The notes under the pieces were generated by a model. That model was not told where the DNA came from. It saw only the letters and a program-made list of their open reading frames with translations, and did no database searches. A DNA stretch of 64,000 nt, taken from Naegleria gruberi. Its lineage: Eukaryota. A program made the translations under genes and the position numbers. The stretch lies in the NCBI GenBank assembly GCA_000004985.1, contig GG738850.1; one strand, written 5' to 3'. Positions 8,237-59,956 of this stretch are shown piece after piece. How positions within the stretch are numbered: the stretch's first letter is position 1; the number at the start of each line of letters is the position of its first letter.

Positions 8237-10699
8237 ATGAGTTACATGGACCATGGAGGTTATCACCAACAAGAAGAGGATTTGTATAGCTTTGGAGATG
8301 ATGGTATGGAAGATGATATGATGCAAGGAAATGCATTCTTTGGAGGAAATCCATTTTCAAATTACGGGTTTAATTCTACTGAAACATTGATGAACGATTT
8401 TGGAGAATCTAATATGGCACCAGGTACAAGAGGTGGACCAACAAGACCACTTGTTTCTGGAAATCCTTGGGGAGGCGTTCCTGGAACTGCTTCTAGAGGT
8501 GCTTTCGGAACAGCCTCGGCAGTAGGTGCTGGAGAAGAAGTACAACAAAGACCAATGACTTCTATTAATGCTGCTGGTTTTTCTTCCAAAAAGAAGGATC
8601 CACTTTCTGAAAATTTTGTTGGTGGGAGAGGAAGAGCTCCTGCCCTTCAAAAGAAGAGTGAAATCAGTGATGAGGATGCTGCAGCAGAAATGGAATTGGG
8701 GGTTCATAGATCAGTCGAAGAAAGTGCTCTTTTGTGCCAGAATAAGGATTTTGCTTTGGCTTTAGATAAAGCTAAGGAAGCAGAAAAGAGAGAAAAAGCA
8801 CTTTTAAGATTTAGAGAGGAGAAACAGATAAATCAAGAACAAAATGTGGAACTTTCATATGTAGTACAATTCAACTTAGCCCGAGTATACCAATTAAACG
8901 GAATGTATACAGAGTCTTTGGAAACTTATGAGGCTATTGTTAGGAATAAGGCCACATTTGAACATGCAGGAAGACTTAGAGTGAACATGGGTAATATTTA
9001 TTTTGAAAAAGGAGATTACCCTCTCGCGATCAAAATGTACAGAATGGCTCTGGATCAAATTACAAACGATTACAAGACCATCAGAAATAAGATTAGAAAA
9101 AATATTGGAGTTTCCTTAATTAAATTGGGACAATACTCTGATGCTATCAGCAACTTTGAGGAAGTTATCGAAAATAATAATAACGATATTGATGCTGCAT
9201 TCAATCTTGTGGTTTGCCATTTCAGTACTGGTAATAAGAAGGAAATGAGAAAGGCTTTCCTCAGATTGTTGAATGTTAATATTCCTGGTTTGCCAGCTGA
9301 TGAAGATTTGGATGATGAACATAATTCCCTGATTAATGATGCATTAAGAGATTATTTAAAGGATCACCAAAGAAAGCAATTCGATTTCATTCTTAAGAGT
9401 GCTAAACTTATTGCTGAACTAATTGAAGACGACTGGGAGAAGGGTTATGATTTCGTTATTGAACAACTCAAATCTTATGAATTGAAGAGAGAAAAGTGTA
9501 ATATTGTGAGTGAAGTTGAAATGACAAAGGCCTTAACATACATGAAACACAAGCAATTCTCCAAGGCTATTGAAGCCCTCAAGTCATTCGAAAAGAAGGA
9601 TAGAAAACTTCAAGCTAGATCAGCAACCAATCTCTCATTCTTATATCTTCTTGAAGGAGATATGAAGAATGCTGAAAAATATGCTTCAACAGCTGTAGAA
9701 TCTGACAAATACAATGCCAACGCCTTGGTTAACAGAGGTAACTGTCACTACTTAAACAAGGAATTGAGAGAAGCCAAAGAATACTATCAAAGAGCTCTTG
9801 AATGTGAATCTGACTGTGTCCAAGCAATCTACAATCTTGGTATTGTAACTAGAGATTTGAGGGAATATGAGGAATCATTGGCTTGTTTCAGAAAAGTACA
9901 TTCTATGATTCCTGAAAATATTGAAGTCATTTATCAACTTGCAAGTGTACATTCAAAGATGGGAGACAATATCACAGCAATTGAATGGTTTAATGTGCTG
10001 ATAACTCTTGTTCCAACAGATCCAGGAGTTTTATATGATTTGGGTACAATTTATGCCAAAGAAAATGATGAAAGTCAATCATTCAATTATTATTTGGAAT
10101 CTTACAAGAATTACCCAATTAACCTTGATGTTATCTCATGGCTGGGCTTCTACTTTGTCAAAAATGATATTTATGAGAAGGCTTTGGCATATTTCGAAAG
10201 AGCTTCTGAAATTCAACCAAATAAGTCTGATTGGCAGTTGATGGTAGCCAGTTGTCATAGAAGAATTGGTAATTTACAACAGGCCAAGAAATGCTATGAA
10301 AGAATTCATAATAAGGATCCTGAAAATTATGAATGTGTACAATATTTAGAACAAATCTGTAGAGATCTCAATTTAAGAAAGGAGGAAAGAATGTATGCTG
10401 AGAAGAAGGCAAAATTAAAGAATAGAATGAAGGAAAAGCAAGAAGAGCAAGAAAGGCTTAAAGAGGAATCAAAGGAAAATACTAAGGAAGAGCATGACAA
10501 ATTGCATCAAGAGCTTAAAAACCATGAAAAGACAATTGACATGGTGATTGCTGCCAACAAATCACCAACAGCTAAATCTAAACCTCAACCAACATTTGAT
10601 ATTGAAAATGATACAAATGTAAATGATCGTAAAATTGAGAATGAGGATGACATGCTTAATGTTGATGCTGATGATTACATAGATAGTCTCTATAATTAA
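8237..10699 (+). CDS. IFT88: Intraflagellar transport protein 88 (IFT88/polaris), a TPR protein, 820 aa
   Basis: Near-colinear similarity to metazoan IFT88 across the TPR region: RVNMGNIYFEKGDYPLAIKMYRMALDQ, GQYSDAISNFEEV, NALVNRGNCHY, CVQAIYNLGIVTRDL, IEVIYQLASVH, AIEWFNVLITLVPTDPGVLYDLGTIY, SQSFNYYLESYKNYP, WQLMVASCHRRIGNLQQAKKCYERIH. Confidence 0.9.
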   Translation: MSYMDHGGYHQQEEDLYSFGDDGMEDDMMQGNAFFGGNPFSNYGFNSTETLMNDFGESNMAPGTRGGPTRPLVSGNPWGGVPGTASRGAFGTASAVGAGEEVQQRPMTSINAAGFSSKKKDPLSENFVGGRGRAPALQKKSEISDEDAAAEMELGVHRSVEESALLCQNKDFALALDKAKEAEKREKALLRFREEKQINQEQNVELSYVVQFNLARVYQLNGMYTESLETYEAIVRNKATFEHAGRLRVNMGNIYFEKGDYPLAIKMYRMALDQITNDYKTIRNKIRKNIGVSLIKLGQYSDAISNFEEVIENNNNDIDAAFNLVVCHFSTGNKKEMRKAFLRLLNVNIPGLPADEDLDDEHNSLINDALRDYLKDHQRKQFDFILKSAKLIAELIEDDWEKGYDFVIEQLKSYELKREKCNIVSEVEMTKALTYMKHKQFSKAIEALKSFEKKDRKLQARSATNLSFLYLLEGDMKNAEKYASTAVESDKYNANALVNRGNCHYLNKELREAKEYYQRALECESDCVQAIYNLGIVTRDLREYEESLACFRKVHSMIPENIEVIYQLASVHSKMGDNITAIEWFNVLITLVPTDPGVLYDLGTIYAKENDESQSFNYYLESYKNYPINLDVISWLGFYFVKNDIYEKALAYFERASEIQPNKSDWQLMVASCHRRIGNLQQAKKCYERIHNKDPENYECVQYLEQICRDLNLRKEERMYAEKKAKLKNRMKEKQEEQERLKEESKENTKEEHDKLHQELKNHEKTIDMVIAANKSPTAKSKPQPTFDIENDTNVNDRKIENEDDMLNVDADDYIDSLYN

Positions 10700-10704
10700 A
10701 TAAA

Positions 10705-11088
10705 TTAATTATCAAAGTAAAAGTTAAATCTAGGAAATTGAATCTTTTCCAAAATAATAGGTTCAATCCACAAAATAAAGGAGCAAATAACAAAGAAGAT
10801 GAAGAAGAATGTAGCTAATCCCAAGCAAAGAACTGTTCCTCCTGTACCTCCTTGTTTGTTCTTTCTTTTTCCGTGATGAGTTTTAAATTGATTTTGAACT
10901 TGTTGTTGTACAAAAGGTGATGTTTTTAAACTTTTAGTTGGTGTAAATAAATCTATTATAGAAATATCATTGAATTCAGTAAATTGATCATCGGCATCAT
11001 CAACGTTCATGTATTGCCGTCTTCTTCGGGAGGTTCGAAGGTTTCGTGATGAAATGGAAATAGATGAAGGTGATGCTGGTAACGGCAT
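10705..11088 (-). CDS. Small hypothetical tail-anchored membrane protein, about 127 aa
   Basis: The ORF track start is TTG at 11100; the first ATG is at 11088. A C-terminal hydrophobic segment (VLCLGLATFFFIFFVICSFILWI) follows a basic, Ser-rich N-terminus. Its stop codon lies 5 nt from the IFT88 stop on the opposite strand. Weak support. Confidence 0.3.
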   Translation of the reverse strand: MPLPASPSSISISSRNLRTSRRRRQYMNVDDADDQFTEFNDISIIDLFTPTKSLKTSPFVQQQVQNQFKTHHGKRKNKQGGTGGTVLCLGLATFFFIFFVICSFILWIEPIILEKIQFPRFNFYFDN

Positions 11089-11216
11089 TTTTAATGTCAA
11101 TAATTATAATCAGTTCTATCACAATGTTTTGATTTTCATAAATAAACAATTTTATTGTACACATCATTCAGATGATGAAAGATTTTGAGAATAGTTCTTA
11201 TACTTCCCTAAAATCT

Positions 11217-11825
11217 CTAATCCTTGTATGAAACGAGAGTATCAACCTTGTGAACACTTGTAGAGAAGGATCTCAATCTAACTTCTGATGATTGAGTAAT
11301 GTATTTTGGGTCTGATTCTTCCCAAGCAAAAGGAGTACAAATATCCTTTGAAGTATAAACCAACAAATCGAATGTGCATGGCTCATTCAACAATGGAAGG
11401 AAGGTAACACTGGCAGTGATTTGACGAATTACAGCTTGAATTTCACTTGTAATTTGCTTCAAATCCTTCGTGTTGTGTCCTTCGTTTTCAGTGATGTTAT
11501 CATCAACCTCCAAATCAAATTGCCATCTTTCTAAAACCTCGGAACTATTAACACTTGTAATGACAAGAACAAGCTTTTGTACTTGCTTTTGAAGAAGCCA
11601 GTTTGAAAGTTGGTTGAGCACTTGACTCAAGTACTTTCTCAGCTGTTCATCAGTTGTTACCATCATTGGCAAGCCATATTTTGATACTTTGGTGAATGTT
11701 TCTGGTGGATAAATTCCTCTCTGATAAAGAATACTATTGATACTATATCCGAAAAATTCAGCAACAATTTCAGTGGAACCCTTCAGGGTGATGGTGTTTT
11801 TTGTGGCTTGAGCAGTTGAAGACAT
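11217..11825 (-). CDS. MAD2: Mitotic spindle assembly checkpoint protein MAD2 (HORMA domain), 202 aa
   Basis: Similar to MAD2 along the full length: ITLKGSTEIVAEFFGYSINSILYQRGIYPPETF, VQKLVLVITSVNSSEVLERWQFDLE, ITASVTFLPLL, VRLRSFSTSVHKVDTLVSYK. ATG at 11825. Confidence 0.9.
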   Translation of the reverse strand: MSSTAQATKNTITLKGSTEIVAEFFGYSINSILYQRGIYPPETFTKVSKYGLPMMVTTDEQLRKYLSQVLNQLSNWLLQKQVQKLVLVITSVNSSEVLERWQFDLEVDDNITENEGHNTKDLKQITSEIQAVIRQITASVTFLPLLNEPCTFDLLVYTSKDICTPFAWEESDPKYITQSSEVRLRSFSTSVHKVDTLVSYKD

Positions 11826-11873
11826 GCTGTGGTGATGATTTTTTTAAATTTTTGTTTATAACGGTTATATTGG

Positions 11874-11882
11874 TTTGGCGCC
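11874..11882 (+). promoter_or_regulatory. E2F-like site TTTGGCGCC in the 89-nt divergent promoter between MAD2 and the 11915 gene
   Basis: Canonical E2F 9-mer, GC-rich within AT-rich DNA. MAD2 is a classical E2F target in animals and plants. Confidence 0.4.
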
Positions 11883-11914
11883 TGATGGAATAACTTTTTG
11901 AATTTTTAAAAAAA

Positions 11915-13173
11915 ATGTGGGATGCATTCGACTTGGATCAACAGCAACAATTATCACAACAAGAAGCTGGTGATGAGCATTCAATGATGGATCACACTCT
12001 TTCGGAAAATCCAAATGATGATGATTATGTATTTTCAATGCAAACAGATGATGAATCAGAGGAGAGGTATTCCGAATCACATAAAATGGATATTAAAGAA
12101 AATCAAGCCATTTCCTTGTTTCATATTCCACAGGAAGTTCTAAATGAAAATCCTGATTTTTCCAGGTTATTACAAACAATTTCTAATCATATATCTCCGG
12201 ACAGTGGAATTGGAAAAGATGAGGAATACGAATTAGAACATTTGGAAAGACAATTCGAGAAGGAGAAGGAAAGATATTTCAAAAACACAATCATAATAGA
12301 TACAATCAAGGAAATGATAGACGATAGTCATCATTATTCTGAGCCGATTCAATCAACACTTTCTCATATAGACAAACTGCTGATAAAATCAGAAATTGAG
12401 ATTGGTATCAATATTTCAGATACTCTCGACTGTGTAAATTTATATGGACTTGATTCTCAAATTTTATCAGACACTATTAATGAGAAGGGGGTTGAAAATT
12501 TGCAAAATAATTTAAGAGAATATATTTACCCTGAATTAATACAGAAATGGGAAGGGTTATATGAAGATTTGCTCACCTTTTATCAACCTTTTCCTGAAGA
12601 GGCAACAAATCTGTTTGCTGACGATTCAAAGAATAGCAAACATTTTTCTCAAATCATTTCAAAACATCTTTCATCTATTAAGAAGGAGAAACACCTCATT
12701 TTGGAACAAAAGCAAAAACTTCAAGAGTATACCTTTACATACTTTAGCAAACTTTCTCAATGTGTACAAATACTCTGTACATTAATTAATCATTACAAGT
12801 GTGGGGAATTCAGACAATACGATGAATCTACCTTGTCTTGGTTAATAGAAAGAACTGAGGCCATGAAACTCAAGTTATGGTATGTATTGATTTTTATTCT
12901 ATTTGTTAACAATTTAATAGTTCAATCAAATATGAGTATCTTGTATCTATTTATGACAAGAATACAGTACCAATCTATTACAAAATGCACAAAATACTTG
13001 CTTCAAATTATAATAATCTAGAAAGTCAAAATAATCAACTGAATGCTGAAATTAAAAAGTATTCAACCTTAGGAGAGGATTTCGAAAAGCTTGTCGAGGA
13101 ATTTTCTATTATTCAGAAAAAGATTAATGAAAAGAAATGGGAAATTGAACAGCTCCACAATCCTAATGACTAG
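11915..13173 (+). CDS. Acidic coiled-coil protein. Two exons: 11915..12879 and 12921..13173.
   Basis: ATG at 11915 after aaaaaaa. A GTATGT donor at 12880 and a TTAATAG acceptor ending at 12920 (41-nt intron, phase 2) join the two track ORFs. This removes the hydrophobic read-through tail and links to the coiled-coil C-terminus (NNLESQNNQLNAEIKKY...). Exon lengths sum to 1218 nt. Confidence 0.5.
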
Positions 13174-13985
13174 TTACTAATATTTTTGGATATTTCTTCA
13201 ATGATACTGTCTGCTCTGGCTATTACTTTTCTGCACTCAGTTTCTGTTTTTTTGAACTCATTGCTATTCAATTTGAATGTATCATTTACAAATGTTTTTA
13301 CATCAGGAAAATCATCAAAACTGAATATTGACTTTTGATTACTATCTACTGTCCATGATTTGATAGGTGGAACTTCAAAATTATCCTCTTTTTCATCAAA
13401 CATTATTGAAGAAAACCTAAGGGCAATATGTTCTCCATTGATAAACTGAAGCTTTTTACATAATTGCTTTAATGTTTCATCAAAGCCTTCCTTTTCACAA
13501 ACTGGGTTTCCCTTTAGATTGATTGATTTCAAGTTTGGAACGTATTGTAATTCTTGTATATCTGTCAAGTTTTCAATATTATTCTTCTCCAGATTGAGGT
13601 GCTGTAAGTGTTTGAGAGAGGAAATACATTCAAGTTTCTTAATTTTGTTATTTGAAAGATTTAATCTTTTTAATTTTGTAATATTTTCCAATCCTTCCAT
13701 AGTTTCAATATCATTATGACTAAGATCAAGGTATTCCAATCTAATACATCTTCCTAAATTTTTAATTTTACTAATTCCTATTGAATTCAAGTCCAATTTA
13801 GCAACACTTCCCAAGTCAAATTGACCCGAGACAGTGCTAATTAAGTTATAATCAATTTCAATTTGTTCATGATAGCCATCCGATATTGAATCACTATCAT
13901 AAGAGATGGCAATACTAGGACTTCCCTCATCCTCACCTGTAGTCAACAAATAGGGTGAGATACTTATTGTAGGGAGAGCAGTCAT
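13170..13985 (-). CDS. SDS22-like leucine-rich-repeat protein with an LRRcap, 271 aa
   Basis: Tandem 22-aa LRRs (LEYLDLSHNDIETMEGLENITKLKRLNLSNNKIKKLECISSLKHLQHLNLEKNNIENL) are followed by a cap (KGNPVCEKEGFDETL). ATG at 13985. Its stop overlaps the stop of the convergent 11915 gene by 4 nt. Confidence 0.65.
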   Translation of the reverse strand: MTALPTISISPYLLTTGEDEGSPSIAISYDSDSISDGYHEQIEIDYNLISTVSGQFDLGSVAKLDLNSIGISKIKNLGRCIRLEYLDLSHNDIETMEGLENITKLKRLNLSNNKIKKLECISSLKHLQHLNLEKNNIENLTDIQELQYVPNLKSINLKGNPVCEKEGFDETLKQLCKKLQFINGEHIALRFSSIMFDEKEDNFEVPPIKSWTVDSNQKSIFSFDDFPDVKTFVNDTFKLNSNEFKKTETECRKVIARADSIIEEISKNISN

Positions 13986-13995
13986 TTTTTTCTAT

Positions 13996-14004
13996 TTTGG
14001 CGCC
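13996..14004 (+). promoter_or_regulatory. E2F-like TTTGGCGCC, plus a nearby GGCGCGAG, in the divergent promoter between the LRR gene and the 14162 gene
   Basis: Second exact copy of the 9-mer, 11 nt upstream of the LRR gene ATG, with another GC-rich CGCG element at 14021-14030. Confidence 0.35.
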
Positions 14005-14161
14005 CAATCACACTACATTAAAGGCGCGAGAACCTCATTGTGTGTAGTTATTGTTCACCACCAACAAACAAACGAAGATAAGTCCAGTTAGCTGAATATG
14101 ATTGTCTGCTGAAAATACCTGTTGTAGTGAGAGTGGATTTGCTGTTCGTAAATTTAAAAAA

Positions 14162-36762: not shown

Positions 36763-37137
36763 TTATGAAAATGGTGGTCCTCAATGCATCAATAAAAACA
36801 TGCTTCCAACTTTGAAGCATATGTTGATAATAAGTAAAATCTTTATTTGCAAAAAGACTACAGCACCACAGGTTCCCAAGTTGTCTCCAACCTCAGTACT
36901 GATGTGGCTCGACGATGCTTAACTTCTCAAATCGGACGGGATGAGGTGCATGAATCGTGATATGGCTGTAGCATTCACTTTCGCAATTTCTGAAATTTTA
37001 ATCTAGCACAATCAGTTTTTGTTTCATTTATTGAGCCTTTTTCAAATTAATTATGGAAACAAACCTCTGTCATTCACCACCGAATGTTTTCTTTTTGGAT
37101 GGAATTACTTAGAATAATTTATTCTATTGACCAGATA

Positions 37138-45111: not shown

Positions 45112-48100
45112 ATGAATGAAATATTGAGTAGACTTGATGAAGCGAGTGAATCCTCGTCATTATCACCAAAGGATCTATTGAAATATTTAAAGGAACAGGA
45201 GCAAACTATTGAATTGTTGATCACCAACCATCGGAACGATTTTAACTTTAATCAATTTGTTTTGAAAATTATACATCATGCTCACAAGTGTGGATTTGAA
45301 GAGTTGGTGAGGTTGATATTTGAAAGGATTCAAAGTGATGATTTATTACGAATTTTAAAAGAATCATTGGAAAATTATATTCTTTCTAATGATGATTCTA
45401 CTTTATGTAGTGTAAATAATTTATTCATGGGGTTGAGATCTTTTCAATCACCATTTGGAATGCTTTCGGAAATGGTTAGAAATAATGTACATAATAATTA
45501 CCTATCAAAGCAATACGGAGATAAGAATCATGTATATACATTCCTCAAATATTGCTTCAATGAATTTGTAAATATAGTTTTTTGCAATGATCCATACTCC
45601 TTTTTCAAAAGTTTGCTGTATAGCTTGATTGTGATTAGGAAAGAGGAAGTTGGAAAGCGAAGGAAAACAGTACAAGGAGCAGATGTAACCAGCAAGGGGT
45701 TATACCAATTCAATTTTAAGAACATATTACAATTGTGTGATACAAGCGCTCTGAGGAAACAATTCTTTGGACTTCTTATTCTAGTAGTATTGGAAATACC
45801 ACAAGAAAAATTGGAAACTCTACTTCCCTCATTCATAGAACAGGAAATTTTAGAAAATGAAGAGATTCTTGGATTATTATTGGAAACTCTGAAAGAAAAG
45901 AATGTTGAAAATAGTACTATTGCAATGATTTATAACGCCTTGGTAGTTTTGGAAGATGAGTTAGGACGTGAAGAGGAAAGTAGAGGAATTAACTCGTTTT
46001 GTAAAGTCTCTACAATGAAAGACAAGATCTTGAACGATTATCCAAATATGTTCTACTCTGAAGATGAAGTATTCTTGAGAGAAATCAATGCTACAAACAA
46101 CTTTGATGTCATCATTTATCAGCTTGAGGCAAAATCAATTGAGGATCTGTTGAAACTGTTAAGTTTATCTGACAATACTCATAATTTGACGAACTCAACA
46201 TTGGCTTGCATTTTTATAATAATTGAACGAATAATGAGTGGAGCAATTGAAAGCTCTCTTACCGAAAAATTATTGTTAGCACAACAGATCAAAGAATATT
46301 TACTTAAATTTATCAATTTTGCAACCACTGAGTTCTGTAATTATTACAAAGATATTGTACTGGAGGGAAAGGACGTGTTGGATATGAATCCAAATACAAA
46401 GAGATGGAAAGAAACAATGGTTAAGATATTTCAACTGATTGGAAATCTTCAAACAGTTTTCTTTGATGACAATATCACCCAGGAACAAACGGGCTTAGCA
46501 TTGCTATCTGTAGACAATCAAATCATTCAAAACATTACCTACCTTTACCTGTTTTCCAAAGTATTGGAAGCCACTGGATGTGCTGAGCTCAGTATGGGAC
46601 TTTCTCAAACACTTCTGAAATTATTGAATATTTCCAATACAGATCACCGAGTAACAATCAATAACAACGATATCAAAGAGGTTTGTATCACATTTTCATT
46701 ACCAAAAAATCTAAAACTCTTAAAGTTATTCAATGGATCACTGTATATAACACTCTGTATTATGAAGGATGAAAGCATGAGAATTTCAATGGGAGCGGAG
46801 GAAATTGAGGCAGTCCAATATATGCATGATCTTTTCAAAAAGACTGAAAGCATTTCAATTCCTAAAATTACTGTGGAAACTCTTGGTTTCATGATGTATA
46901 GTATTGTAAATAGCGAAGAAGAGGCGAATAATATTATTTCCAATCCCATGATGTATGTTATTACACGGCTTGGCCCTTTTAGAGATACTATTGAAATCAA
47001 GTTATCTTCCAGTGGAACTGTTAAGACTAATGTTCCTCAACCTCTTTATATGTTGACCAGTAAGTATTTAGATATAATGTTGATTTATTAGAAATGATTA
47101 GAGTTTATTGAGATTTTTGGAAATGACAAAACAATTTCACCAAGAAATGTTTACACTGCAATGTGTTTCATGATTGGTATAATTGAATCCTACTCAAAGC
47201 ATTTTTATGAAAGATTAGATTCCACACCATCAGAAAAAAGACCTGCCATGTTTTTATACATTGAAGAGTGTTCAAAACTTTTAGTTTTCAAATTCTCAAC
47301 CTTGATACCATTATTGAATACTGGAATGAATGCATTTAAAGGGCTAGATAGTATATATTTGAAGGCTTGCACCTCATACATGTCATTTATTAGTGCATTT
47401 CTATTGAAATTATCAAAGTCAAGAAAAATTGAGCTGGTTTCAGTGTTAATCAAACAGTGGTATGATAGGTTGCTCCAAGAACCAAAAAATCCCAACTACC
47501 ATTCAGATCTACAAGCTATGGAACAGGTTCCTGTGTTCTTCATGTTTCATCACCTTCTCAAAACTAATTATTTCTTCAAAATGATGTCCCACGAAGATTC
47601 AATTGTTGGAGTTAAACTCTTGAATTCAGCAGAAAAAACAGGAAAGGTATTTGAATTTTTCTCGATATATGTGGATGCATGGCTAGACATAGCAATGAAT
47701 ACTGATTCCCTTAATTTTGACAAGATAACATCCAAATCATTGACCAAAGCAATATTGGAAATATTTAATCAATATATTTCCGCTAAAGACTCTTTCGAGT
47801 CACTTTCAAATATTGATATGTTTGTCAATTCCACACTCAAAATATTCAAAAGCGAATTTATTAATGATGCAAGAGGTAACCTTTTGAAAATATATGATAA
47901 GATAACAGAGATAGATAAGGTAGCTCTTGCTTTCTTGGACTCTTTGGAAAGCTTGGATAACAAGCATCCATTACATAATTTTTTGGAAATTTTGGAAAAG
48001 AAGCCAAAAGAAGATGGTGTAACATTCTCAGTCAAATATAATACTCTAATGATTTTTGAGAAAATGGCCAAGCACATGAAACGAGTTATTCCCAAAAATC

Positions 48101-49020
48101 CTGAAAAGATTGATTCTCTTATTGATTTTTTGAAAAAGCATTCCATAGTTCAGAGAATGGTTGCAATAATCAATATCAAAGATGTAGATCCTAATATTAG
48201 CGAGGAAAGTCTCACTTCATATTTCAATTACTACGAGTCATTGTTGGATGCAATCCTTCCACTCTTGACAGTACTTCCTAAAAACGAGGAATACTCTATC
48301 AATTTAATTTCTGAACCACCTCTCACTACATTGTTGTGTAAATTATTCCAAAATAACCGAAAGCACATACTGAAAAAGTTTCCAAAACTATTGAGCACAC
48401 TTTTTACTCTCTATGAGAAGTGTCTACAAATATTTGTAGTCTATTCCAAAACATCAAAAGAACATGCAAAATTAGAAGAATTGCGTGAGAAACTCTTTTC
48501 CAAATCTTTCATTTTCATTATCAAGACATGCTTTGTAAATATTCCACTGAGTAATCAAGATGCTTATTTGTGGAAAAGAAGTGATGATCCTGGTAGAGAT
48601 CTTGCTAACTCATTAATTAATATCATTTCAGAAATAACTCAAGCGATAACTTCTGCTCCAAACTTGTTCAGGAATTATTCCCAAGTTTTAGAGGAAAATG
48701 GTGTGTTGCCAATTTTACAGAAAGTTGATCTTCCACATCCAAAATTGAAAATTATTATTGAAAGATTATCCAATAATAACTCATCATCTCCCTCCTTGAA
48801 ACAATATCCTTCATTTGCTAAGCCAAGCTCATCAAGTTCTGTACCACCAGCCACAAATACACCACCAGCAAATGACAGCAGTAATAACTCAAACAATGCA
48901 AGGTTTCAAACTACAAATGCATCATCGTCCACACCAAAACCTCCTGTTTTTAGACCTCCAGATTCGGCTTCAAATCAGACAGCTACCAAACAAGTATTTA
49001 AACCACCTCCTAGAAAATAA
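45112..49020 (+). CDS. Large alpha-helical repeat protein of about 1288 aa with a Pro/Ser/Asn-rich C-terminus. Two exons: 45112..47059 and 47102..49020.
   Basis: The two track ORFs are joined by a GTAAGT...ATTAG intron (47060-47101, 42 nt, phase 1), which removes the stop at 47089-47091. Leu-rich helical composition throughout (HEAT/ARM-like). Function unknown. Confidence 0.55.
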
Positions 49021-49021
49021 A

Positions 49022-49309
49022 TTATTTCCTTCTTTTTTGATTATAATTCTTACTGTTATTATTACTGCTAGAAGCATTAGAATTAGGATTTTTAAGCTTT
49101 TCAATTTCTTGTTTTGCAGTATAATATAGTTTGGAAATATTAACACGAAGTTGATTGTTTTCAGTTTCCTTCTCCTTCAATTTATGTCTTGTTTCATCCA
49201 ATTGTTGTCTGAGTTTTTCCACTTCAGTTTTCAACTCTTCTATTACTTTCCGATCATAGTCCCTTCCTAACAAATCACTGACAAAATCGTGTACTTCTTC
49301 GTTAGACAT
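49022..49309 (-). CDS. Small coiled-coil protein, 95 aa
   Basis: ATG at 49309. Its stop abuts the stop of the convergent large gene, 1 nt apart. Heptad-like charged sequence. Weak. Confidence 0.3.
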   Translation of the reverse strand: MSNEEVHDFVSDLLGRDYDRKVIEELKTEVEKLRQQLDETRHKLKEKETENNQLRVNISKLYYTAKQEIEKLKNPNSNASSSNNNSKNYNQKRRK

Positions 49310-49347
49310 TTTTTATTATTAATTTACAACCTTTAGACAATATTCAA

Positions 49348-52950: not shown

Positions 52951-54258
52951 ATGGCTAGTCATGATGAGGAAGTTTACATTGCTGAATTTTATAGTGGTAT
53001 CGGAGGAACAAGAATGTCTCTTGAAATGATTCAAGCCTTTTTTGAGGCACAAGTAAATGGAAAGAAAATTAAATTTAATTGGATTGAAGCTTTTGATATT
53101 AATGAAAATGCAAATACTCTTTATAATAATTTATTTAATCACAAACCATGTGCAAAGGATATTGTGCATATTCCTATTGGTGATTTTCAAAATCATTATT
53201 TTAAATTATTTAAAAATTCATCATTGGAGCAAGCAAAGAAGAAATTAAAAACTGAACAAACAAGAAAATTAATGTGGACCATGTCTCCTCCTTGTCAACC
53301 ATTTACTTTGAACGGAAATAGAAAAGATAGTGAAGATGATAGGTCTAAGAGTTTTCTCTTCTTGATGGCAGATTTATTTCCTCAAGTTCTACCAGATTAC
53401 ATTTTTGTGGAAAATGTAAAGAATTTTGAAATATCTAAAACAAGACAACATTTAGTGAATCAATTGGAAAATTTTGGATACAAGTATGAAGAATACTTGA
53501 TTTGTCCAACACAATTAGGACTTCCAAATCAGAGAGTTAGATACTATTTAATTGGAAAGAGAGTAGCTAATATTACACCTCCATTAGAAAAAACAGAAGA
53601 GCTTAGAGAAATACCATTACATCTGATAACAGATCCACCAAAAACTATTTTAAGAGATCAGGAGCCTTTACGACCAAAAATTGATTTTGAGAGCTCATAT
53701 GGAAAAGAGAAAATTCTACAATTAGGAGCAAAGTTAATCGACTTGTATGATTTAAATTCTATTTTACTCACACCTGGGGAAGAGAAAAAATACCAAACTG
53801 ATATGATTTATTTGAACGAGAAAAATATAACAAAAATCAAAGGTTACAGATACGACCTAATTTTCAAAGATCCATATGGAAAGAAGAATTTAACACCAAT
53901 CAAATCTGAGTGTAGTTGTATCACAAAATCATATGGTCAAGTTCAATTCCTTAGAGGAACAGGACCTATAGTATTGATTCTTGATGAAAATCAAATGTTA
54001 GATATTGATTCTAATGAAACCATTTATAAGAAAATTGATTTTGAAAATCCAGTAGAAACCATGATGCCACTTGGAAAGCTTCGATTTTTACATCCAATTG
54101 AGGTATCACGACTAATGACATTTGTTCCTTGGATAATGAACAACACAGGCAAACTTACCGTTAAGCAACTTTACAAGTTGATGGGAAATTCTGTTAATCC
54201 AATTACTCTTGCAAACATAATTTATTTACTATTTTCAAGTGATTCATTTTTGGCTTAA
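52951..54258 (+). CDS. DNMT2: tRNA (cytosine-5)-methyltransferase DNMT2/TRDMT1
   Basis: C5-MTase motifs in canonical order: motif I (FYSGIGG), motif IV (SPPCQPFT), motif VI (ENVKNF) and target-recognition CFT-like elements. It matches Dnmt2 in having no N-terminal regulatory region. ATG at 52951 after aaaaaaaa. Confidence 0.85.
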   Translation: MASHDEEVYIAEFYSGIGGTRMSLEMIQAFFEAQVNGKKIKFNWIEAFDINENANTLYNNLFNHKPCAKDIVHIPIGDFQNHYFKLFKNSSLEQAKKKLKTEQTRKLMWTMSPPCQPFTLNGNRKDSEDDRSKSFLFLMADLFPQVLPDYIFVENVKNFEISKTRQHLVNQLENFGYKYEEYLICPTQLGLPNQRVRYYLIGKRVANITPPLEKTEELREIPLHLITDPPKTILRDQEPLRPKIDFESSYGKEKILQLGAKLIDLYDLNSILLTPGEEKKYQTDMIYLNEKNITKIKGYRYDLIFKDPYGKKNLTPIKSECSCITKSYGQVQFLRGTGPIVLILDENQMLDIDSNETIYKKIDFENPVETMMPLGKLRFLHPIEVSRLMTFVPWIMNNTGKLTVKQLYKLMGNSVNPITLANIIYLLFSSDSFLA

Positions 54259-56232
54259 TTTGTCTACAATCCTCTTAAGGTTATTTTTTGCGCTTGTGTA
54301 GCAATTGTCAATCTTGATTGCAGTTTCGAAATCAAATCTAGCTGCCTCCAGGTCTTCCATACATGTTTCGTATATACGACCCCTCATATTGAAAAGCACA
54401 GCGTTGGAAGGATCATTTGCTATTGCTTGATTAATGATGCTTAATCCTGTTTTGTGGTCTTTTAATTTGTAGCAATACAAGTTAGCACGATTTAAAAATA
54501 CATGGACTGATTTCGAATCATACTTATCAGTGATTAAACTATAATCCTTAAGTGCTTGTTGATAGTTTTGCATATCCTCGTAACATAATGCTCTTATGAA
54601 ATGAGTAAGTGCTTTAAACGGTCTACAACTGTCATCCATATCATGTATTATTGAATCTAGGTCACTGAGGCAATTTTCATAATCCTTTTTGATTATTCTA
54701 TTGTACAGAACTCTTATCAACATAGATTCATCTTCAGTAGTAGTGTTAATATTTGCTTCTACCATATTTTCAATGAGTTTTTCGGTTATAGAGTGTGATT
54801 GCAGTTCCAAAACATCTATAATGGTCAAATATATTTTGAAGGAATCGTTAAGACTTCTAGAATTCCTTATTTCCTTTGATTTAGAGACAAGAATGTCCAA
54901 TATGTGAGTGTGAGATTTCTGAGCTGGTTTTTCTTTCTTGACATCTTTGAAAATTTTCTCTATTCTTTGTAAATTATCCTTCGCTTCCAGATTCTTTGGA
55001 TCAAGCTTTAATGCAAGAATGTAATCAAGCCTAGCTGATTCAAAATTTTTAAACCCAACTTCGAAAACCTTTCCTCTTCCAACCAAACAAGGTACTGAGC
55101 TGGCTTGTATTTTCAATGCTCGATTGTAATCTGCTAAAGCCATATCAAATTCACTAATCTTGAAGAATAATTGAGCTCTACTTAAAAATGCTGCAAAGTA
55201 ATCTGGAGATAGAATGATTGCATGATTGTAATCTCTCAATGCGCTTTCCCAGTCATCTAATGAATTCTTGTACAAATCTGCTCTGCATTTATAAAGCATT
55301 GCAATGTTAGGATGATTTTCAATACCAATATTTAAATCGTTGAGAGCTGCCTCTACTTGGTCTGATCTTTGTAATATTAATGATCTGGAAACATATGCTT
55401 TGTAATAGTCGTAATCCTCAATTATTTTTCCGAAATCCATTTTGGCTTCAGAATATCTTTTAAGATCAACGTAGCAACATCCCCTTATATAGTGTGTTAA
55501 ACATACAAGTAAATTGTGTTCACTTGTTTGGATTTCCAACAAATTAGTGCAGAAAGAAATGGTCTTGTGATTGTCCATTAAAATAGATCTGGAAAATATA
55601 GCACAACAAAATAAGGCAAGGGTGTAGTTTGGACTTTCTTTAACAGAATCCAAAAAGGAATACATATTATGTTCTTTGGAGTCCAGAATTGATATTTTCC
55701 TCTTCATTTCATTGTATATTTGTTCAGCTTTTGAGCATTCTGTTTGTACAATTATTTCATTTGATAAAAAGAGCAAATAATCCACAGTCATTATTTCATC
55801 AGATGATGAGCTTGGTTTGGAATCATCATTTCTATCAACTCTTTTGGGAGTGTACTGTCTTGACCTTGCTGTTTCCTTAACTTCATCAGCAGCATCCTTC
55901 TTGATTTTTTCAATCAGTGCATCCTTCTTCTTTTCAACCATCTTCTTAGCTTCATTGATGATATTCTCGATTAGATTTTTAACAAGCCTTTCCTGTTCCT
56001 CAAAAATCTGTTTTACATTTGTATCCTTACTAAGTTCTGCTTGCTTTTCCAATTCCTCGATCATTTCATCAATATTATATTTAGGTTGCTCCTCTTCCAT
56101 CAAAACTTCTGGTTGATCACTTGCTCTCAACTCCTCTAGCTTTTTCGTATATTCCTGTTCGGTAAGAAATCCCTCCCTTAGTAGTGTGTTGAGAAGTATT
56201 TCCGAACTGGGACCTTCAGTATTGTTGTTCAT
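54244..56232 (-). CDS. Tetratricopeptide-repeat protein with a Lys/Glu-rich coiled-coil N-terminus, about 660 aa
   Basis: ATG at 56232 (the track start at 56253 is TTG). Multiple 34-aa TPR-like units (W..A..DY..AL...P....A...RA.....). Its 3' end overlaps the DNMT2 3' end by 15 nt on the opposite strand. Confidence 0.65.
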   Translation of the reverse strand: MNNNTEGPSSEILLNTLLREGFLTEQEYTKKLEELRASDQPEVLMEEEQPKYNIDEMIEELEKQAELSKDTNVKQIFEEQERLVKNLIENIINEAKKMVEKKKDALIEKIKKDAADEVKETARSRQYTPKRVDRNDDSKPSSSSDEIMTVDYLLFLSNEIIVQTECSKAEQIYNEMKRKISILDSKEHNMYSFLDSVKESPNYTLALFCCAIFSRSILMDNHKTISFCTNLLEIQTSEHNLLVCLTHYIRGCCYVDLKRYSEAKMDFGKIIEDYDYYKAYVSRSLILQRSDQVEAALNDLNIGIENHPNIAMLYKCRADLYKNSLDDWESALRDYNHAIILSPDYFAAFLSRAQLFFKISEFDMALADYNRALKIQASSVPCLVGRGKVFEVGFKNFESARLDYILALKLDPKNLEAKDNLQRIEKIFKDVKKEKPAQKSHTHILDILVSKSKEIRNSRSLNDSFKIYLTIIDVLELQSHSITEKLIENMVEANINTTTEDESMLIRVLYNRIIKKDYENCLSDLDSIIHDMDDSCRPFKALTHFIRALCYEDMQNYQQALKDYSLITDKYDSKSVHVFLNRANLYCYKLKDHKTGLSIINQAIANDPSNAVLFNMRGRIYETCMEDLEAARFDFETAIKIDNCYTSAKNNLKRIVDKLSQK

Positions 56233-56375
56233 TTTTTTAAAATCTTTTTTCAAATTAAACGGCTAGTTATCAATAAGGGTTATGGAAAGTTTATTCATTG
56301 ATAAGGAACAAATATCGAATTGTGTTTACACCTTTAATTCTTGCTAAATATCACTCTCAGATGAACAAAATGATG

Positions 56376-56407
56376 TTTGCCGCCAAAACCCATACAATTT
56401 TTGCGCC
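56376..56407 (+). promoter_or_regulatory. Pair of E2F-like GC elements (TTTGCCGCCAAAA and TTTTTGCGCC) about 15-45 nt upstream of the CEP44 ATG
   Basis: Two GC-rich CGCC-core motifs in the AT-rich 188-nt divergent promoter between the TPR gene and CEP44. Confidence 0.3.
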
Positions 56408-56420
56408 AACTTTAAAAAAA

Positions 56421-57380
56421 ATGTCAACAGGGGATATTAAAAACAACGTTGAAAAATTAAGAACGCAATTAAGAAGTATTCATTATAATGGGAGTTTTGA
56501 TGTTGAGGGAATAATAAACGGAAAACCAGAAGTGTTTCTGCCGTTATTGAATTATACACTGCTGCAGTTTAGCAAATCTTTAGCCAAATTCTTTATACAA
56601 AAGGGATATTTATTCCATAATCTTTCCGATTCAAAGTTTATTGAAACTGTTTACCGATTATTAATTAACGAGTTTGCATACAATCCAAGTTTGAGCATTA
56701 TTTACTTCTTATCTAGCGGATTTTCAGAGAGAAAGGTCTTGTTCCTTTGTGATGTAATTCATTACTGTAAAAAAAAGCATAATGAATTGGTAAAGACTAA
56801 AAAGAAGAGCCTCTTTGAAAGAGGAAAGGAAAAGGAAAAAGATCATCCAAAGAAGACTGAGGAATCAAAATCTCAACAGCCAGAAGTACAAAAGAATATT
56901 CCTGATATTGTTAGAGAACCAAAGCATGTTGTTTTGGTCAGAAAAGAACCTGAATATCAACTAGATGTCGATGACTCGAACGTCGATACTACAGTATCTT
57001 CTGCTCTCAATGAGAGTGACATATTTATACGTGCTTTGAATGATCTTTCGCATAGAATGATGGATAGTATTCAAAAGCTTGACGATAAGGTTGACAAGAA
57101 TTTATCCAGTCTTAGAGACAGAGTATTTTTAGTGGAGAGAAGAGTTCAAGCTCTGGAAGAAAGTGCAAAACAGAAAGCTCAAAAGGAAGAAGCACTACAA
57201 CTAAATCCAACATCTCGAATTTCTCGATCGCCTGAAAGGATACCAAACACAAACCACATACCTCAACAATTTTTTACACCTGCAGTGAATCATGGCAGTC
57301 CGCCAATGCCAAAAAGGCAAATCAGCGACACTGAAGATTTTATCAACCAACTAGCTCAAAAACATAAAATAAAATTGTAA
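56421..57380 (+). CDS. CEP44: Centrosomal protein CEP44 homologue
   Basis: The N-terminal conserved CEP44 domain reads MSTGDIKNNVEKLRTQLRSIHYNGSFDVEGIINGKPEVFLPLLNYTLLQFSKSLAKFFIQKGYLFHNLSDSKFIETVYRLLINEFAYNPSLSIIYFLSSGFSERKVLFLCDVIHYCKKKHNEL, followed by a coiled-coil C-terminus. ATG at 56421; the track start at 56298 is upstream read-through. Confidence 0.7.
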   Translation: MSTGDIKNNVEKLRTQLRSIHYNGSFDVEGIINGKPEVFLPLLNYTLLQFSKSLAKFFIQKGYLFHNLSDSKFIETVYRLLINEFAYNPSLSIIYFLSSGFSERKVLFLCDVIHYCKKKHNELVKTKKKSLFERGKEKEKDHPKKTEESKSQQPEVQKNIPDIVREPKHVVLVRKEPEYQLDVDDSNVDTTVSSALNESDIFIRALNDLSHRMMDSIQKLDDKVDKNLSSLRDRVFLVERRVQALEESAKQKAQKEEALQLNPTSRISRSPERIPNTNHIPQQFFTPAVNHGSPPMPKRQISDTEDFINQLAQKHKIKL

Positions 57381-57381
57381 T

Positions 57382-59956
57382 TTATTGTAAAAACTTTTCA
57401 AGTTGAGATTCTTGTGATTTTTCAGCATCTTCTGCTCTTAACACCTCAATTGAACCCTTACTATCACCAACCAACACAATTGGAACATCTTCAGCGAATA
57501 TTGTGCAATTCAGCTTTCCAGGTTTTGTCTTGGAATATTTTGGTCTAACTGTTGAATAGCTCAAATCCCAAAGCTCCAAATCTCCAACAATGGATGAAGT
57601 AGCAAACATTGTCGAGCAATACTTACTCCAAGCAACATCTGTCACAGAGTAAGAACGTTGATCACTCTTCTCAGAGTATGACTCGATAGTAAATATTGGT
57701 GTTAATGATTCTTGATTCCATATCTTCACTGTCCAGTCAGCACTACAAGAAATAAACATGTCAGGAACGACAGGATTCCATCTCACAGAGTAAACAGGAC
57801 CTGTGTGATCAATGTATGTTTCAAGAGGGTGTTCATTATATGAGCTAGAGCACTTGAAGATAGCACCATCTTCTGTACCAACAAGATAAATCAAATTGTC
57901 AGAAGGTGAGAAATCAATACTCATACCACCCGATTCTCTTGAAATCATGGCATCTCCTCCCATATCTGTTGCTCTTCCTATTCTCTTCAATCTCATTATT
58001 TCTGATGATTCCAAACCTTTCTTAATTGTCCATGAATTTACTCTACCATCTACACCAACCGAGTGCAATTTCTCGCCAACATCCTTTCCTCGATTTACCC
58101 ATTTTAGATCCCAAACTGTACCTGTATGACTCTTAATAGTTTCCATTACTGGCGTATTTTCCTTTCTTCTGATATCGTAAATTGATACAGTACCATCACT
58201 TAAACCAGCTGCCAAAATACTAGGATTAGTGGCAGAGAAATTTACACTGTTAACACCAGCTCCATCTACCTTAAGAATACGTTCTGGGTAGGCTGGATTC
58301 TTAACATTCCAACAGAGAATGACACCATTAGATTGATGTAAATCAGTAACATCTCCAGATCCATAAGCTGCTGCCAGTATGTCATTATTCTGCTTATTCC
58401 ATGTGAGGTTGTTGACATTGTAGTTTTTAACCACATCACAATTATATTCCCAAAGAGTTGTGAGAACTCCTGATGGTTTAGTGTTGACAACATCTTCTTC
58501 AGTATCACTTTCAGCCTTATCTTTTTCTTCATCCTCCCTTTCCTTTTCTTTTTCGTCCTCTCCTTTAGCAACTTCTTCCTCTTCGAAAGTGTCACTTCTT
58601 GGAGTTTCTTGAGAGTCGTTTGGCGATTTTGAGGCAACCTCCTCTTGAACTTCTTTAGTTTCAGATTGTTCTTCAGGAAGTGGTAATAAAGGCACATCTC
58701 TATCATCTGCATTAATGTATCGTTTTTGTCTGTTATGGAATATATTTTGTACAACTGCTCTTGTTATTACAAGTTCTTGGTAGGATGAAACAGATGTCTT
58801 TTCGCTGCCAACTCTTCCACTCTTAACACTGATATCATCAGCTCCATCATCCTCCAAATCTCCTTCTTCCTCGTCTTCCTCATCTTGCTTGTTTGATAGT
58901 GAGGTCATTATTTCCCTTTCTTCCCTTTCTCGTTCTTCTCTTTCTCGAATATCTTTATAATCATCAAATATTTGATAAGCTGAAACTTGAACTTCAACTT
59001 CTTCGTATTCTGTCTTCGAAGTGTTTGTTCTCTTGTTTTTGTAAAACTTTTCCATTGTTTGTACATGTTTATCCATATAATTATCTCTATTATTTTCCTT
59101 ATTTTTCAGCAATTCCTTATAGACCTTGTTTTTTTCTCTAATTTCTTCAATCTTAGGATCGTCAACCTTTACACTCTCATCAAATTTATCAAACAGGAAA
59201 AATGTTTCAGTTTCTGTTAAGGATATAGTAAAATCCACTTCTTGTAACATTTCCAATTGTTTTTCAGTTAATTTTTCCTCGTTGGAACGATCCAAACTTA
59301 TTGAAGGAACGTCACTCTTTTTAATAAAACTATCCACTGCTCCAATATTATCCAAATCTTGAGCTAAACTCAAATCTACAGATCCAGCAGTGCTGAAAGT
59401 GTCATCATTACCCACAGGACCACTGAACACAAATGACTCCTCATCGTCACTCACAACAGATGGACTTGATGAGCCAGCTTGACTAGCCTCTCCTTGAGGA
59501 ATATCTCTTCCGAAACTGTATGAAGAAGCTCTATCAAAATCAGAAATTGATTCACTCTAAAACAATATTAAATACAATTCCATCTTATTAAAAACCTACT
59601 GCTGATGAAGGAGAAATATTTCCCGATTGATATGATCCTGCCATATCTGCTGATGTATTTTGAGAGAATAATGGTGCAGGATTTTTGATTTGTTTTGTTA
59701 CTGGGTCAACAGCATCAAATGAATCCTTAGTTTTTCCTAGCATTGTTTGAAATCTCTTCTTCATTCCTTGAAGAGTAATTGATGATCCAACATTCTTTTT
59801 TCCAAATCCTTTTTTCGAATCGGATTTTCTTGATTTTGATGTTCTCGATGTTGACGACCCTGTATTGAGTTGAGTGGACATTCTACGAGATTCCCTGTTT
59901 GTAGAACTGCCTGCTCTAGAGGACGTTGGTGGATCTTGGAATGGGTTTCTATTCAT
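57382..59956 (-). CDS. WD40-repeat dynein intermediate-chain-like protein of about 843 aa, likely axonemal (inner-arm IC138/WDR78-like). Two exons: 59956..59600 and 59556..57382.
   Basis: Exon 1 (ATG at 59956) is Ser/Arg/Lys-rich. A GTAGGT donor at 59599 and a TTTTAG acceptor at 59557 (43-nt intron, phase 0) follow. The C-terminal half has WD40 blades with the dynein-IC signature (SIDFSPSDNLIYLVGTEDGAIFKCSSSYNE...YIDHTGPVYSVRWNP...FISCSADWTVKIWN). Its stop is 1 nt from the CEP44 stop. Confidence 0.65.

Follow-up and report, generated by a model that had tools for sequence, protein, structure and literature searches.

Naegleria has a genome of about 41 Mb with about 15,700 genes. The stretch analysed here (64,000 nt, hereafter the window) is compact, A+T-rich nuclear DNA of Naegleria gruberi NEG-M. 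Ten of its genes form five convergent pairs, J1 to J5, whose stop codons on opposite strands abut or overlap, with stop-to-stop distances of 5, -4, 1, -15 and 1 nt, respectively (Table 1). The 3' ends face each other, i.e., the pairs have the tail-to-tail geometry of convergent cis-natural antisense genes. Coding sequence is shared over 15 nt at J4 and over 4 nt at J2 (stop codons only); J1, J3 and J5 abut and share none. The pairs had been proposed in an earlier reading of the DNA without database searches (the sequence-only reading). Each of its coordinates was found again, and its gene names agreed with the PDB matches (IFT88 and, for the dynein intermediate chain, DNAI4) and the Pfam matches (CEP44, DNMT2).

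Table 1. Genes and features at the five convergent junctions (window positions; minus-strand stop codons are followed in brackets by their plus-strand letters)
Feature	Junction	Position	Strand	Stop codon	Support
IFT88 gene	J1, A	8237..10699	+	TAA 10697-10699	exact match EFC48600
Small gene, 127 aa (10705 gene)	J1, B	10705..11088	-	TAA (TTA) 10705-10707	orthologues
HAUS4 (augmin subunit 4) gene	J2, A	11915..13173	+	TAG 13171-13173	Pfam HAUS4
HAUS4 exons/intron	J2, A	exon 1 11915-12879; intron 12880-12920; exon 2 12921-13173	+		orthologue alignment
Leucine-rich-repeat (LRR) gene	J2, B	13170..13985	-	TAG (CTA) 13170-13172, read 13172 to 13170	exact match EFC48736; Pfam LRR
Large gene, 1288 aa (45112 gene)	J3, A	45112..49020	+	TAA 49018-49020	N. 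lovaniensis orthologue
Small gene, 95 aa, coiled-coil (49022 gene)	J3, B	49022..49309	-	49022-49024	orthologues
DNMT2 (tRNA cytosine-38 methyltransferase) gene	J4, A	52951..54258	+	TAA 54256-54258	exact match EFC48610
TPR protein gene, 662 aa	J4, B	54244..56232	-	TGA (TCA) 54244-54246, read 54246 to 54244	exact match EFC48743
CDS/CDS overlap, 15 nt	J4	54244..54258	.		read from sequence
CEP44 gene	J5, A	56361..57380	+	TAA 57378-57380	Pfam CEP44 E = 1e-38
Axonemal inner-arm dynein intermediate chain gene (DNAI4/IC138 type; dynein IC)	J5, B	57382..59956	-	57382-57384	PDB DNAI4 E = 7e-95
Dynein IC exons/intron	J5, B	exon 1 59600-59956; intron 59557-59599; exon 2 57382-59556	-		

On the sequence evidence, all ten partners are real protein-coding genes; their coding status rests on exact annotated matches, orthologues, dN/dS and domains. 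Four of the ten (IFT88, LRR, DNMT2 and TPR) match annotated N. gruberi proteins exactly. The IFT88 product also matches IFT88 in the PDB (E = 2e-168), and its C-terminus, DSLYN followed by the stop, is shared by a close relative (L003) and by N. lovaniensis (L004). The DNMT2 product carries a Pfam DNA_methylase domain over residues 10-424 of 435, and the matching protein record is named tRNA (cytosine38-C5)-methyltransferase. The TPR C-terminus aligns with that of its N. lovaniensis orthologue, which ends at about the same position, and the LRR orthologue in that species is 66% identical. HAUS4 reaches J2 only with a 41-nt intron, which orthologue alignment confirms; its C-terminus, WEIEQLxxPND followed by the stop, is conserved, with no difference in the orthologues from N. 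lovaniensis and N. fowleri. In the 45112 gene an intron is likewise required (42 nt, in frame, 47060-47101) and gives a single open reading frame (ORF); its orthologue in N. lovaniensis has 1271 aa, and no Pfam domain was found in its product. The start of CEP44 is uncertain, 56361 being the first ATG.

The two small genes, for which the sequence-only reading had recommended a search for orthologues, proved to be conserved. The product of the 10705 gene, with a hydrophobic segment at its C-terminal end, has orthologues P0013 (81% identity) and P0014; compared with L003, dN/dS is about 0.10 and synonymous changes occur among the last codons. The product of the 49022 gene has orthologues P0015, P0016 (N. 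lovaniensis C9374_002022) and P0017; the 16-residue motif NISKLYYTAKQEIEKL is invariant. Codon usage is host-like in both (0.18 and 0.30 bit/codon, respectively). Neither product has an exact match in the protein collection or a Pfam family above threshold. Both genes appear to be absent from the N. gruberi annotation; the N. lovaniensis annotation has a 127-aa gene at the place syntenic to the 10705 gene, and the syntenic counterpart of the 49022 gene as well.

At J4, the last four codons and the stop of DNMT2 overlap the TPR gene, and the overlap spans five codons in the same register, read as S F L A stop in DNMT2 and as L S Q K stop in TPR. Either stop has sense in the opposite gene, as TCA or TTA, that of TPR lying inside a TCA codon of DNMT2. 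At J2, the palindrome CTAG is common to both stops.

The window has 12 convergent junctions, five of them with abutting or overlapping genes; the 12 gaps are 120, 122, 5, -4, 314, 88, 176, 375, 172, 1, -15 and 1 nt. Under a chance model of 5% per junction for the range -15 to +5 nt, taken from a uniform spacer of 0-400 nt, the probability of at least five such junctions among 12 is 1.8e-4. Tandem and divergent spacers, which carry promoters, do not fall below about 19-38 nt in the window. One of them, the tandem spacer from the stop of g49348 to the ATG of the 49022 gene, is 38 nt long, and an AATAAA in it precedes the ATG by 2 nt. The convergent gaps look bimodal, with none between 6 and 87 nt among only 12 junctions, a distribution not expected from a simple model of decay. 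Convergent junctions of N. lovaniensis populate the intermediate range (37, 43 and 64 nt).

The requirements for 3'-end formation in N. gruberi have been described by direct RNA sequencing. The median 3' UTR is 39 nt, the top poly(A) hexamer is AAUAAA, and the auxiliary elements are UGUA upstream and a U-rich element downstream (PMC11529991). The same study gives 11-13% of stop codons as overlapping AAUAAA, with a median UTR of 22 nt in such cases, and defines this dual use by a window that reaches 2 nt upstream and 5 nt downstream (PMC11529991). By this definition, three of the ten junction genes have a dual-use stop and the other seven do not. The IFT88 stop is overlapped by ATTAAA (10695-10700) and AATAAA (10699-10704), that of the 45112 gene lies within AATAAA (49016-49021), and that of dynein IC within AATAAA on the minus strand (57386-57381). 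In a scan for AATAAA and ATTAAA around the ten stops, five genes had a canonical AATAAA that overlaps the stop or lies shortly before or behind it. The hexamer lies at -12 in CEP44 (57368-57373, 4 nt upstream of the stop) and at +18 in TPR (minus strand, 54226-54221), antisense to DNMT2 codons. Neither hexamer was found within 100 nt of the stops of the 10705 gene, HAUS4, LRR, the 49022 gene and DNMT2, so the poly(A) sites of these genes are not predictable.

The claim that the junctions leave no room for polyadenylation signals therefore does not hold, since half of the genes have AATAAA at or near the stop and that of TPR sits inside its partner's coding sequence. Indeed, 19.2 kb of confident coding sequence contains AATAAA twice in sense and 19 times in antisense orientation, so coding sequence readily carries the partner's signal. 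The last 40 coding nucleotides of abutting genes are 45% A vs 36% in others (Mann-Whitney p = 0.016, post hoc), and the 40 nt 3' of abutting genes are 47% T vs 39%. Coding strands are A-rich, most of all in these ten tails; consequently, their antisense is U-rich, like an ordinary 3' flank. The U-rich stretch 3' of the dynein IC stop is antisense to the Lys-rich tail of CEP44.

The related claim that private 3' UTRs cannot fit is borne out by the junction geometry together with the published UTR lengths. Provided that both genes of a pair are expressed, their transcripts would therefore run antisense to each other at the 3' ends. We infer that both mRNAs of each pair are made and that, given geometry and UTR lengths, they are complementary over roughly 20-80 nt.

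The junctions differ in their persistence among relatives. The J1 gap is 1 nt in L003 and 102 nt in N. lovaniensis. At J3, the gap of 1 nt in N. gruberi corresponds to 4 nt in N. lovaniensis and 47 nt in L005; in L006 and L007 it is 0 nt, but the partner is another gene. The TPR orthologue of J4 faces a different gene, 43 nt away. J2 and J3 still abut between N. gruberi and N. lovaniensis, J2 also with a gap of 4 nt there. Because orthologous gaps are labile and partners are sometimes replaced, neutral compaction is favoured over designed antisense regulation.

Our preferred reading, to which we give a probability of about 0.75, is that the arrangement is where deletion-driven compaction ends, a mostly neutral process limited by selection on the C-termini of the proteins, and not a dedicated regulatory device. 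A convergent junction holds no promoter and requires solely the information for 3'-end processing. In N. gruberi these needs are small, given ultrashort UTRs and an AAUAAA often fused with the stop. With so few requirements, a convergent spacer can shrink to zero, and in each of the five pairs the inter-stop spacer would have been lost in this way. Each short 3' UTR, its cleavage site and its downstream U-rich element would then lie within the partner's last codons, in antisense. General compaction explains both the lability of the gaps and the squeezed tandem spacers.

An artefact, i.e., a spurious ORF in some pairs or a true last exon ending elsewhere, could be suspected since the two small ORFs are short and lack a Pfam family or an exact protein match, and since two other partners require introns. 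It is, nonetheless, highly improbable. Purifying selection up to the stop is evident from the orthologues of both small ORFs, the introns are confirmed through orthologue alignment, and the exact annotated matches include both members of J4. The artefact explanation was thus refuted for all five pairs, as far as comparative evidence allows. The sequence-only reading had left a choice between mutually antisense mRNAs and a mis-called partner; the second branch falls with this result and the first stands by geometry, if both genes are expressed. It had also suggested a genome-wide organisational feature with possible regulatory consequences, and for a regulatory feature no support was found. On a regulatory reading, the pairs would be functional cis-natural antisense genes, whose 3' complementarity or polymerase collision regulates the partners through transcriptional interference, through mRNA-mRNA duplexes altering decay or translation, or through double-stranded RNA entering an RNAi pathway. 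With both genes expressed, complementarity necessarily follows from the geometry, and J2 and J3 abut in N. lovaniensis too. Moreover, where convergent genes of yeast are separated by short spacers, their mRNAs form duplexes with post-transcriptional effects and the gene orientation is retained (PMC6993858), and 3' UTR overlap mediates interference in yeast (PMC3900390). Nevertheless, J1, J3 and J4 change gap or partner freely among relatives, and tandem spacers are compacted as well. Opposite control would also have no evident logic for CEP44 and dynein IC, both cilium/centriole genes, and the partner of IFT88 is an unknown small protein. We consider antisense regulation unlikely, and labile gaps and partners argue weakly against a regulatory consequence.

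Alternatively, the junctions could be selected as shared bidirectional 3'-end modules, in which near-identical palindromic tails (the stop and the preceding codons) are kept because each doubles as the partner's post-stop context and poly(A) region. The J1 tails TATAATTAA and GATAATTAA match at 8 of 9 positions, as do the J3 tails AGAAAATAA and AGGAAATAA, and the J2 tails match at 7 of 9. Among random pairs of gene tails in the window, no more than 1.4% reach 8 of 9. The A-rich tails of abutting genes fit this idea too, and the post-stop TAAATTA recurs at non-abutting genes. However, the palindromy was a post hoc observation. J4 and J5 lack it, and it has not been kept where the orthologous genes meet in L003 and N. 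lovaniensis. A 1-nt gap permits a perfect AATAAA for one partner only; that is what was seen, and unconstrained packing would give the same. Such a module is decidedly improbable, even though, given the persistence of J2 and J3 and the three near-identical tail pairs, the arrangement may be under some selection. The broader proposition that zero-spacer junctions are a selected genome-wide feature of Naegleria, a shared 3'-end module whose complementarity serves co-regulation or RNAi-type control, appears very doubtful. If it were true, the stop-embedded AAUAAA and the partner's A-rich C-terminal codons would form one bidirectional module, cilium and centriole genes, for example, would be controlled through it in the amoeba-to-flagellate switch, and gene order would be locked too.

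The arrangement has practical consequences. The whole 3' UTR of ten of the about 45 genes in the window (about a fifth) would be antisense to a neighbour's coding sequence, which matters for annotation of Naegleria genomes; two real small junction genes are apparently not included in the N. gruberi gene set. At such sites, unstranded RNA-seq is hard to interpret, and C-terminal tags or knock-outs would damage the neighbouring gene. The junctions also bear on the minimum sequence needed for a eukaryotic 3'-end processing site. No new mechanism is revealed; at junctions without promoters, compaction is expected to go this far.

Giardia, microsporidia and yeast convergent pairs already offer examples of such arrangements, and an explicit description of abutting convergent pairs in Naegleria was not found in the literature. 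Dual-use stops and ultrashort 3' UTRs are described for Giardia, Spironucleus and N. gruberi in two studies (PMC11529991, PMC7641422). The likeness lies in the AAUAAA and in the three dual-use stops among ten genes here, and the junctions can close because 3' UTRs are short. These studies treat single genes, and their available portions report neither abutting convergent stops nor a signal within the partner's coding sequence. In Giardia muris, 9.5% of genes overlap neighbours, by 21 bp on average (PMC7641422). Giardia muris, microsporidia and nucleomorphs are likewise gene-dense, their spacers are gone and neighbouring genes or transcripts overlap. In contrast, Naegleria is free-living and no reduced parasite; its spacers with a promoter still measure about 40-250 nt, and the collapse affects convergent junctions only. 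Yeast convergent pairs likewise have 3'-complementary mRNAs, with a short intergenic distance as the determinant (PMC3900390, PMC6993858). There, coding sequences usually lie about 100 nt or more apart and UTR overlaps UTR, whereas in Naegleria the UTR would overlap the partner's coding sequence.

The five convergent junctions, J1 to J5, at which the sequence-only reading had placed abutting or overlapping stop codons were all borne out when the sites were read and then recomputed, and the presence of such gene pairs is confirmed (see table). In J4, the overlap comprises five codons in the same register, read as S-F-L-A-stop in DNMT2 and as L-S-Q-K-stop in the TPR gene. The window has 30-37% G+C, and its A/T skew tracks the coding strand.

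Junctions, genes and other features of the window and of relatives' contigs (signals are from the gene-end scan)
Feature	Position (nt)	Strand	Detail
J1, IFT88 / 10705-11088 gene	stops 10697-10699; 10707 to 10705	+ / -	TAA; TAA; gap 5 nt
J2, HAUS4 (11915 gene) / LRR gene	stops 13171-13173; 13172 to 13170	+ / -	TAG; TAG; CTAG common to both, 4-nt span
J3, 45112 gene / 49022-49309 gene	stops 49018-49020; 49024-49022	+ / -	TAA on +; gap 1 nt
J4, DNMT2 / TPR gene	stops 54256-54258; 54246 to 54244	+ / -	TAA; TGA; 15-nt overlap
J5, CEP44 / dynein intermediate chain	stops 57378-57380; 57384-57382	+ / -	TAA on +; gap 1 nt
IFT88-like protein		+	EFC48600, exact match; AATAAA overlaps stop (TAAATAAA)
MAD2			EFC48735, exact match
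LRR protein		-	EFC48736, exact match
DNMT2		+	EFC48610, exact match
41011 gene			EFC48740, exact match
ORF 42065-43288	42065-43288		exact match to a metagenome sequence, clustered with annotated nucleostemin-family protein EFC48741
TPR protein		-	identical to EFC48743; AATAAA 17 nt past stop, antisense to DNMT2 codons
45112 gene		+	AATAAA overlaps stop, TAA in the middle
Dynein intermediate chain		-	AATAAA overlaps stop, arranged as in 45112 gene
CEP44		+	AATAAA 4 nt upstream of stop
Spliceosomal intron, HAUS4	12880-12920		41 nt; 5' GTATGT, 3' TAG
Spliceosomal intron, 45112 gene	47060-47101		42 nt; 5' GTAAGT, 3' TAG
Spliceosomal intron	59557-59599		43 nt; 5' GTAGGT, 3' TAG
J1 palindromic tails	10692-10712		ATAATTAA / TTAATTAT
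J2 palindrome	13159-13184		75%, around CTAG
J3 palindromic tails	49012-49030		AGAAAATAA / TTATTTCCT; both proteins end R-K-stop
49022 orthologue, third relative	L006 1641-1660; L007 1649-1654		ends TGA, then TTA = stop of convergent ORF ...ELYEIAKAKNAEQ
J3 spacer, L005 relative	L005 2564-2610		47 nt; inverted repeat TTTGTAATT ... AATTACAAA
Transposase ORF	2900-4849	-	649 aa
5S rRNA gene	36855-36973	-	between convergent genes ending 36762 (+) and 37138 (-)
Tandem spacer	49309-49348		upstream gene stop (49348) to 49022-gene ATG (49309)

A count that drew on ORFs, codon scores and domains gave twelve convergent junctions in the window, with 120, 122, 5, -4, 314, 88, 176, 375, 172, 1, -15 and 1 nt between the stop codons; 5 of the 12 fall within -15 to +5 nt (P of at least 5 of 12 = 1.8e-4, assuming a 5% chance per junction). 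Divergent spacers in the window measure about 90-245 nt, and the shortest tandem spacer 38 nt, or 19 nt if 18262 and 18282 count as separate genes. No spacer in the window that must hold a promoter is as short as the abutting convergent gaps. The surplus of abutting junctions is real and is confined to junctions without a promoter. Strict bimodality of the convergent gaps was rejected in view of gaps of 37, 43 and 64 nt in N. lovaniensis and of 47 nt in another relative (contig L005). Non-coding explanations were likewise discarded: the window holds no tRNA genes, and Rfam gives a 5S rRNA gene alone, distant from the junctions. This gene is complete (96 bits) and lies inside the 375-nt convergent spacer. 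In the 38-nt tandem spacer, 2 nt separate the end of an AATAAA from the 49022-gene ATG. The mRNA of the upstream gene probably ends inside the 49022 coding sequence, and the promoter of the 49022 gene must be sited in the upstream gene.

Exact protein look-up of ten ORF translations gave six matches, five of them annotated N. gruberi NEG-M proteins of one scaffold (707,703 bp). When N. gruberi proteins were searched as exact sequences against the contig index, MAD2 and the LRR protein had no match, and the nucleostemin-like gene matched only a metagenome DNA contig. IFT88 was identified by PDB IFT88 (E = 2e-168), and HAUS4, CEP44, LRR, TPR and DNA methylase domains were found with Pfam. The J5 dynein intermediate chain is of the DNAI4/IC138 type and reaches 843 aa once an upstream exon is added. 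The mechanical ORF list breaks three genes at their 41-, 42- and 43-nt introns. HAUS4 needs a GT...AG intron; the spliced product can be aligned over its length to its orthologues from N. lovaniensis and N. fowleri, all three sharing the C-terminus ...WEIEQLxxPND. The intron needed in the 45112 gene is in frame, and the spliced product has 1288 aa vs 1271 aa in the N. lovaniensis orthologue. Genes of the cilium, centriole and spindle are abundant in the window (8237-16278, 56361-59956), with IFT88, HAUS4, CCDC81, CEP44 and the DNAI4-type dynein intermediate chain, plus MAD2 and Rad21. The transposase ORF, with a Mutator-like domain (Pfam E = 1e-18) and codon usage below the host-like threshold, probably represents a transposon of the MULE type, or else a domesticated copy.

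The small partners in J1 and J3 had been doubted, and they proved to be genuine genes on the strength of orthologues, dN/dS, an invariant block and host-like codon usage in both. The 10705-11088 ORF (127 aa) has orthologues with 81% identity in a close relative's metagenome contig and 57% in an NCBI assembly. Compared to the close relative, dN is 0.11 and dS 1.16, and the last codons differ by synonymous changes which retain the peptide ...KIQFPRFNFYFD. A 127-aa gene is also annotated at the syntenic place in N. lovaniensis. The 49022-49309 ORF (95 aa) has three orthologue clusters, including N. lovaniensis C9374_002022, and the NISKLYYTAKQEIEKL block is invariant among this coiled-coil protein and its orthologues. 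The exact sequence of neither product was found in the protein collection, and the UniProt neighbours leave no slot for them, as D2V3A0 comes straight after D2V399, and D2V3B4 and D2V3B7 have just two accessions between them. Therefore, the N. gruberi NEG-M annotation apparently lacks both genes. A four-orthologue profile of the 49022 protein matches the CASP8AP2/FLASH N-terminal domain (PDB 6ano_B, 6aoz_B; E about 0.007-0.01) over almost its full length, among coiled-coil noise, a weak hint that the product may be FLASH-like. N. gruberi is reported to be without SLBP.

As for 3' ends, a direct RNA sequencing study of N. gruberi gives a median 3' UTR of 39 nt and AAUAAA as the dominant signal, overlapped by 11-13% of stop codons (dual-use stops, median UTR 22 nt), with an upstream UGUA element and a downstream U-rich element (PMC11529991). 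For five of the ten junction genes, no canonical hexamer was found within 100 nt in the gene-end scan, and their poly(A) sites are thus unpredictable. A 1-nt gap allows a perfect stop-embedded AATAAA for one partner only, to which J3 and J5 conform. Confident coding sequence (19.2 kb) contains two sense and 19 antisense copies of AATAAA, so coding sequence keeps clear of the signal on its own strand but not on that of a convergent neighbour. The 40 nt past the stop hold 47% T in abutting genes vs 39% in other genes, because the last 40 coding nt of the partners are A-rich (45% vs 36%, p = 0.016, post hoc). For instance, the Lys-rich tail of CEP44 (QKHKIKL) is antisense to the UUUUAUUUUAUGUUUUU found after the dynein intermediate chain signal. 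The short UTRs, with their cleavage sites and downstream elements, would lie within the last codons of the partners, and partner mRNAs are predicted to be complementary across some tens of nucleotides if both are expressed. The text of a differentiation transcriptome paper gives no data on these genes.

Comparison with relatives showed that the junctions are labile. At J1, the close relative has 1 nt between the stops (TAA-A-TTA) and N. lovaniensis 102 nt; at J3, N. lovaniensis has 4 nt and the L005 relative 47 nt. In a third relative, known solely from a JGI metagenome contig (L006) and a Logan contig (L007), the small J3 gene has a different convergent partner with 0 nt between the stops; the terminal exon of this partner was missed by the gene caller in L006, and called genes just upstream of the convergent ORF carry an acyltransferase domain. 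At J4, the TPR orthologue of N. lovaniensis converges with an unrelated gene across a 43-nt gap, and DNMT2 is not nearby. For J5, a chimeric HAUS4+CEP44 query gave HAUS4 orthologues only and a metagenome scan with the dynein intermediate chain gave no relatives, so the cross-species comparison covers J1-J4. The N. fowleri HAUS4 protein was absent from the contig index. Unselected convergent gaps at two N. lovaniensis loci are 37, 64, 96 and 210 nt. The repeat in the L005 spacer is a perfect 9-nt inverted repeat and puts UGUA on both strands. The varying gaps and partners indicate that abutment arises and dissolves repeatedly, with different partners, a pattern that fits spacer loss via small deletions and stop-codon shifts.

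A selected bidirectional 3'-end module would account for the near-identical gene tails at three junctions (8/9 positions in J1 and J3, 7/9 in J2), a similarity of 8/9 being reached by 1.4% of random gene-tail pairs in the window. The tail palindromy of J1-J3 is not conserved in relatives, and such a module appears improbable. J2, with a 4-nt gap and an unchanged HAUS4 C-terminus, and J3 still abut in N. lovaniensis, which is compatible with the module and also with a regulatory use of the mRNA overlap. Nevertheless, abutment is labile, partners change, and the junctions, when aligned across species, show no conserved intergenic element; conserved regulatory pairing would fit poorly with this lability, and regulatory use is judged quite unlikely. 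Regarding the earlier proposal of obligatory antisense 3' ends with regulatory consequences, its structural part is supported by inference from the geometry and published UTR lengths, and its regulatory part is unsupported, the gaps and partners being labile.

In the literature searched, no paper was found that explicitly describes convergent genes abutting in Naegleria. Dual-use stops and ultrashort UTRs have already been described for N. gruberi itself, Giardia and Spironucleus, and the mechanism proposed for the window agrees with them (PMC11529991, PMC7641422). In Giardia muris, 9.5% of genes overlap by 21 bp on average, and the overlaps in the window are similar (PMC7641422). Convergent pairs in yeast can form duplexes and cause mutual interference, and the complementarity predicted for the Naegleria mRNAs would be of a similar kind (PMC3900390, PMC6993858).
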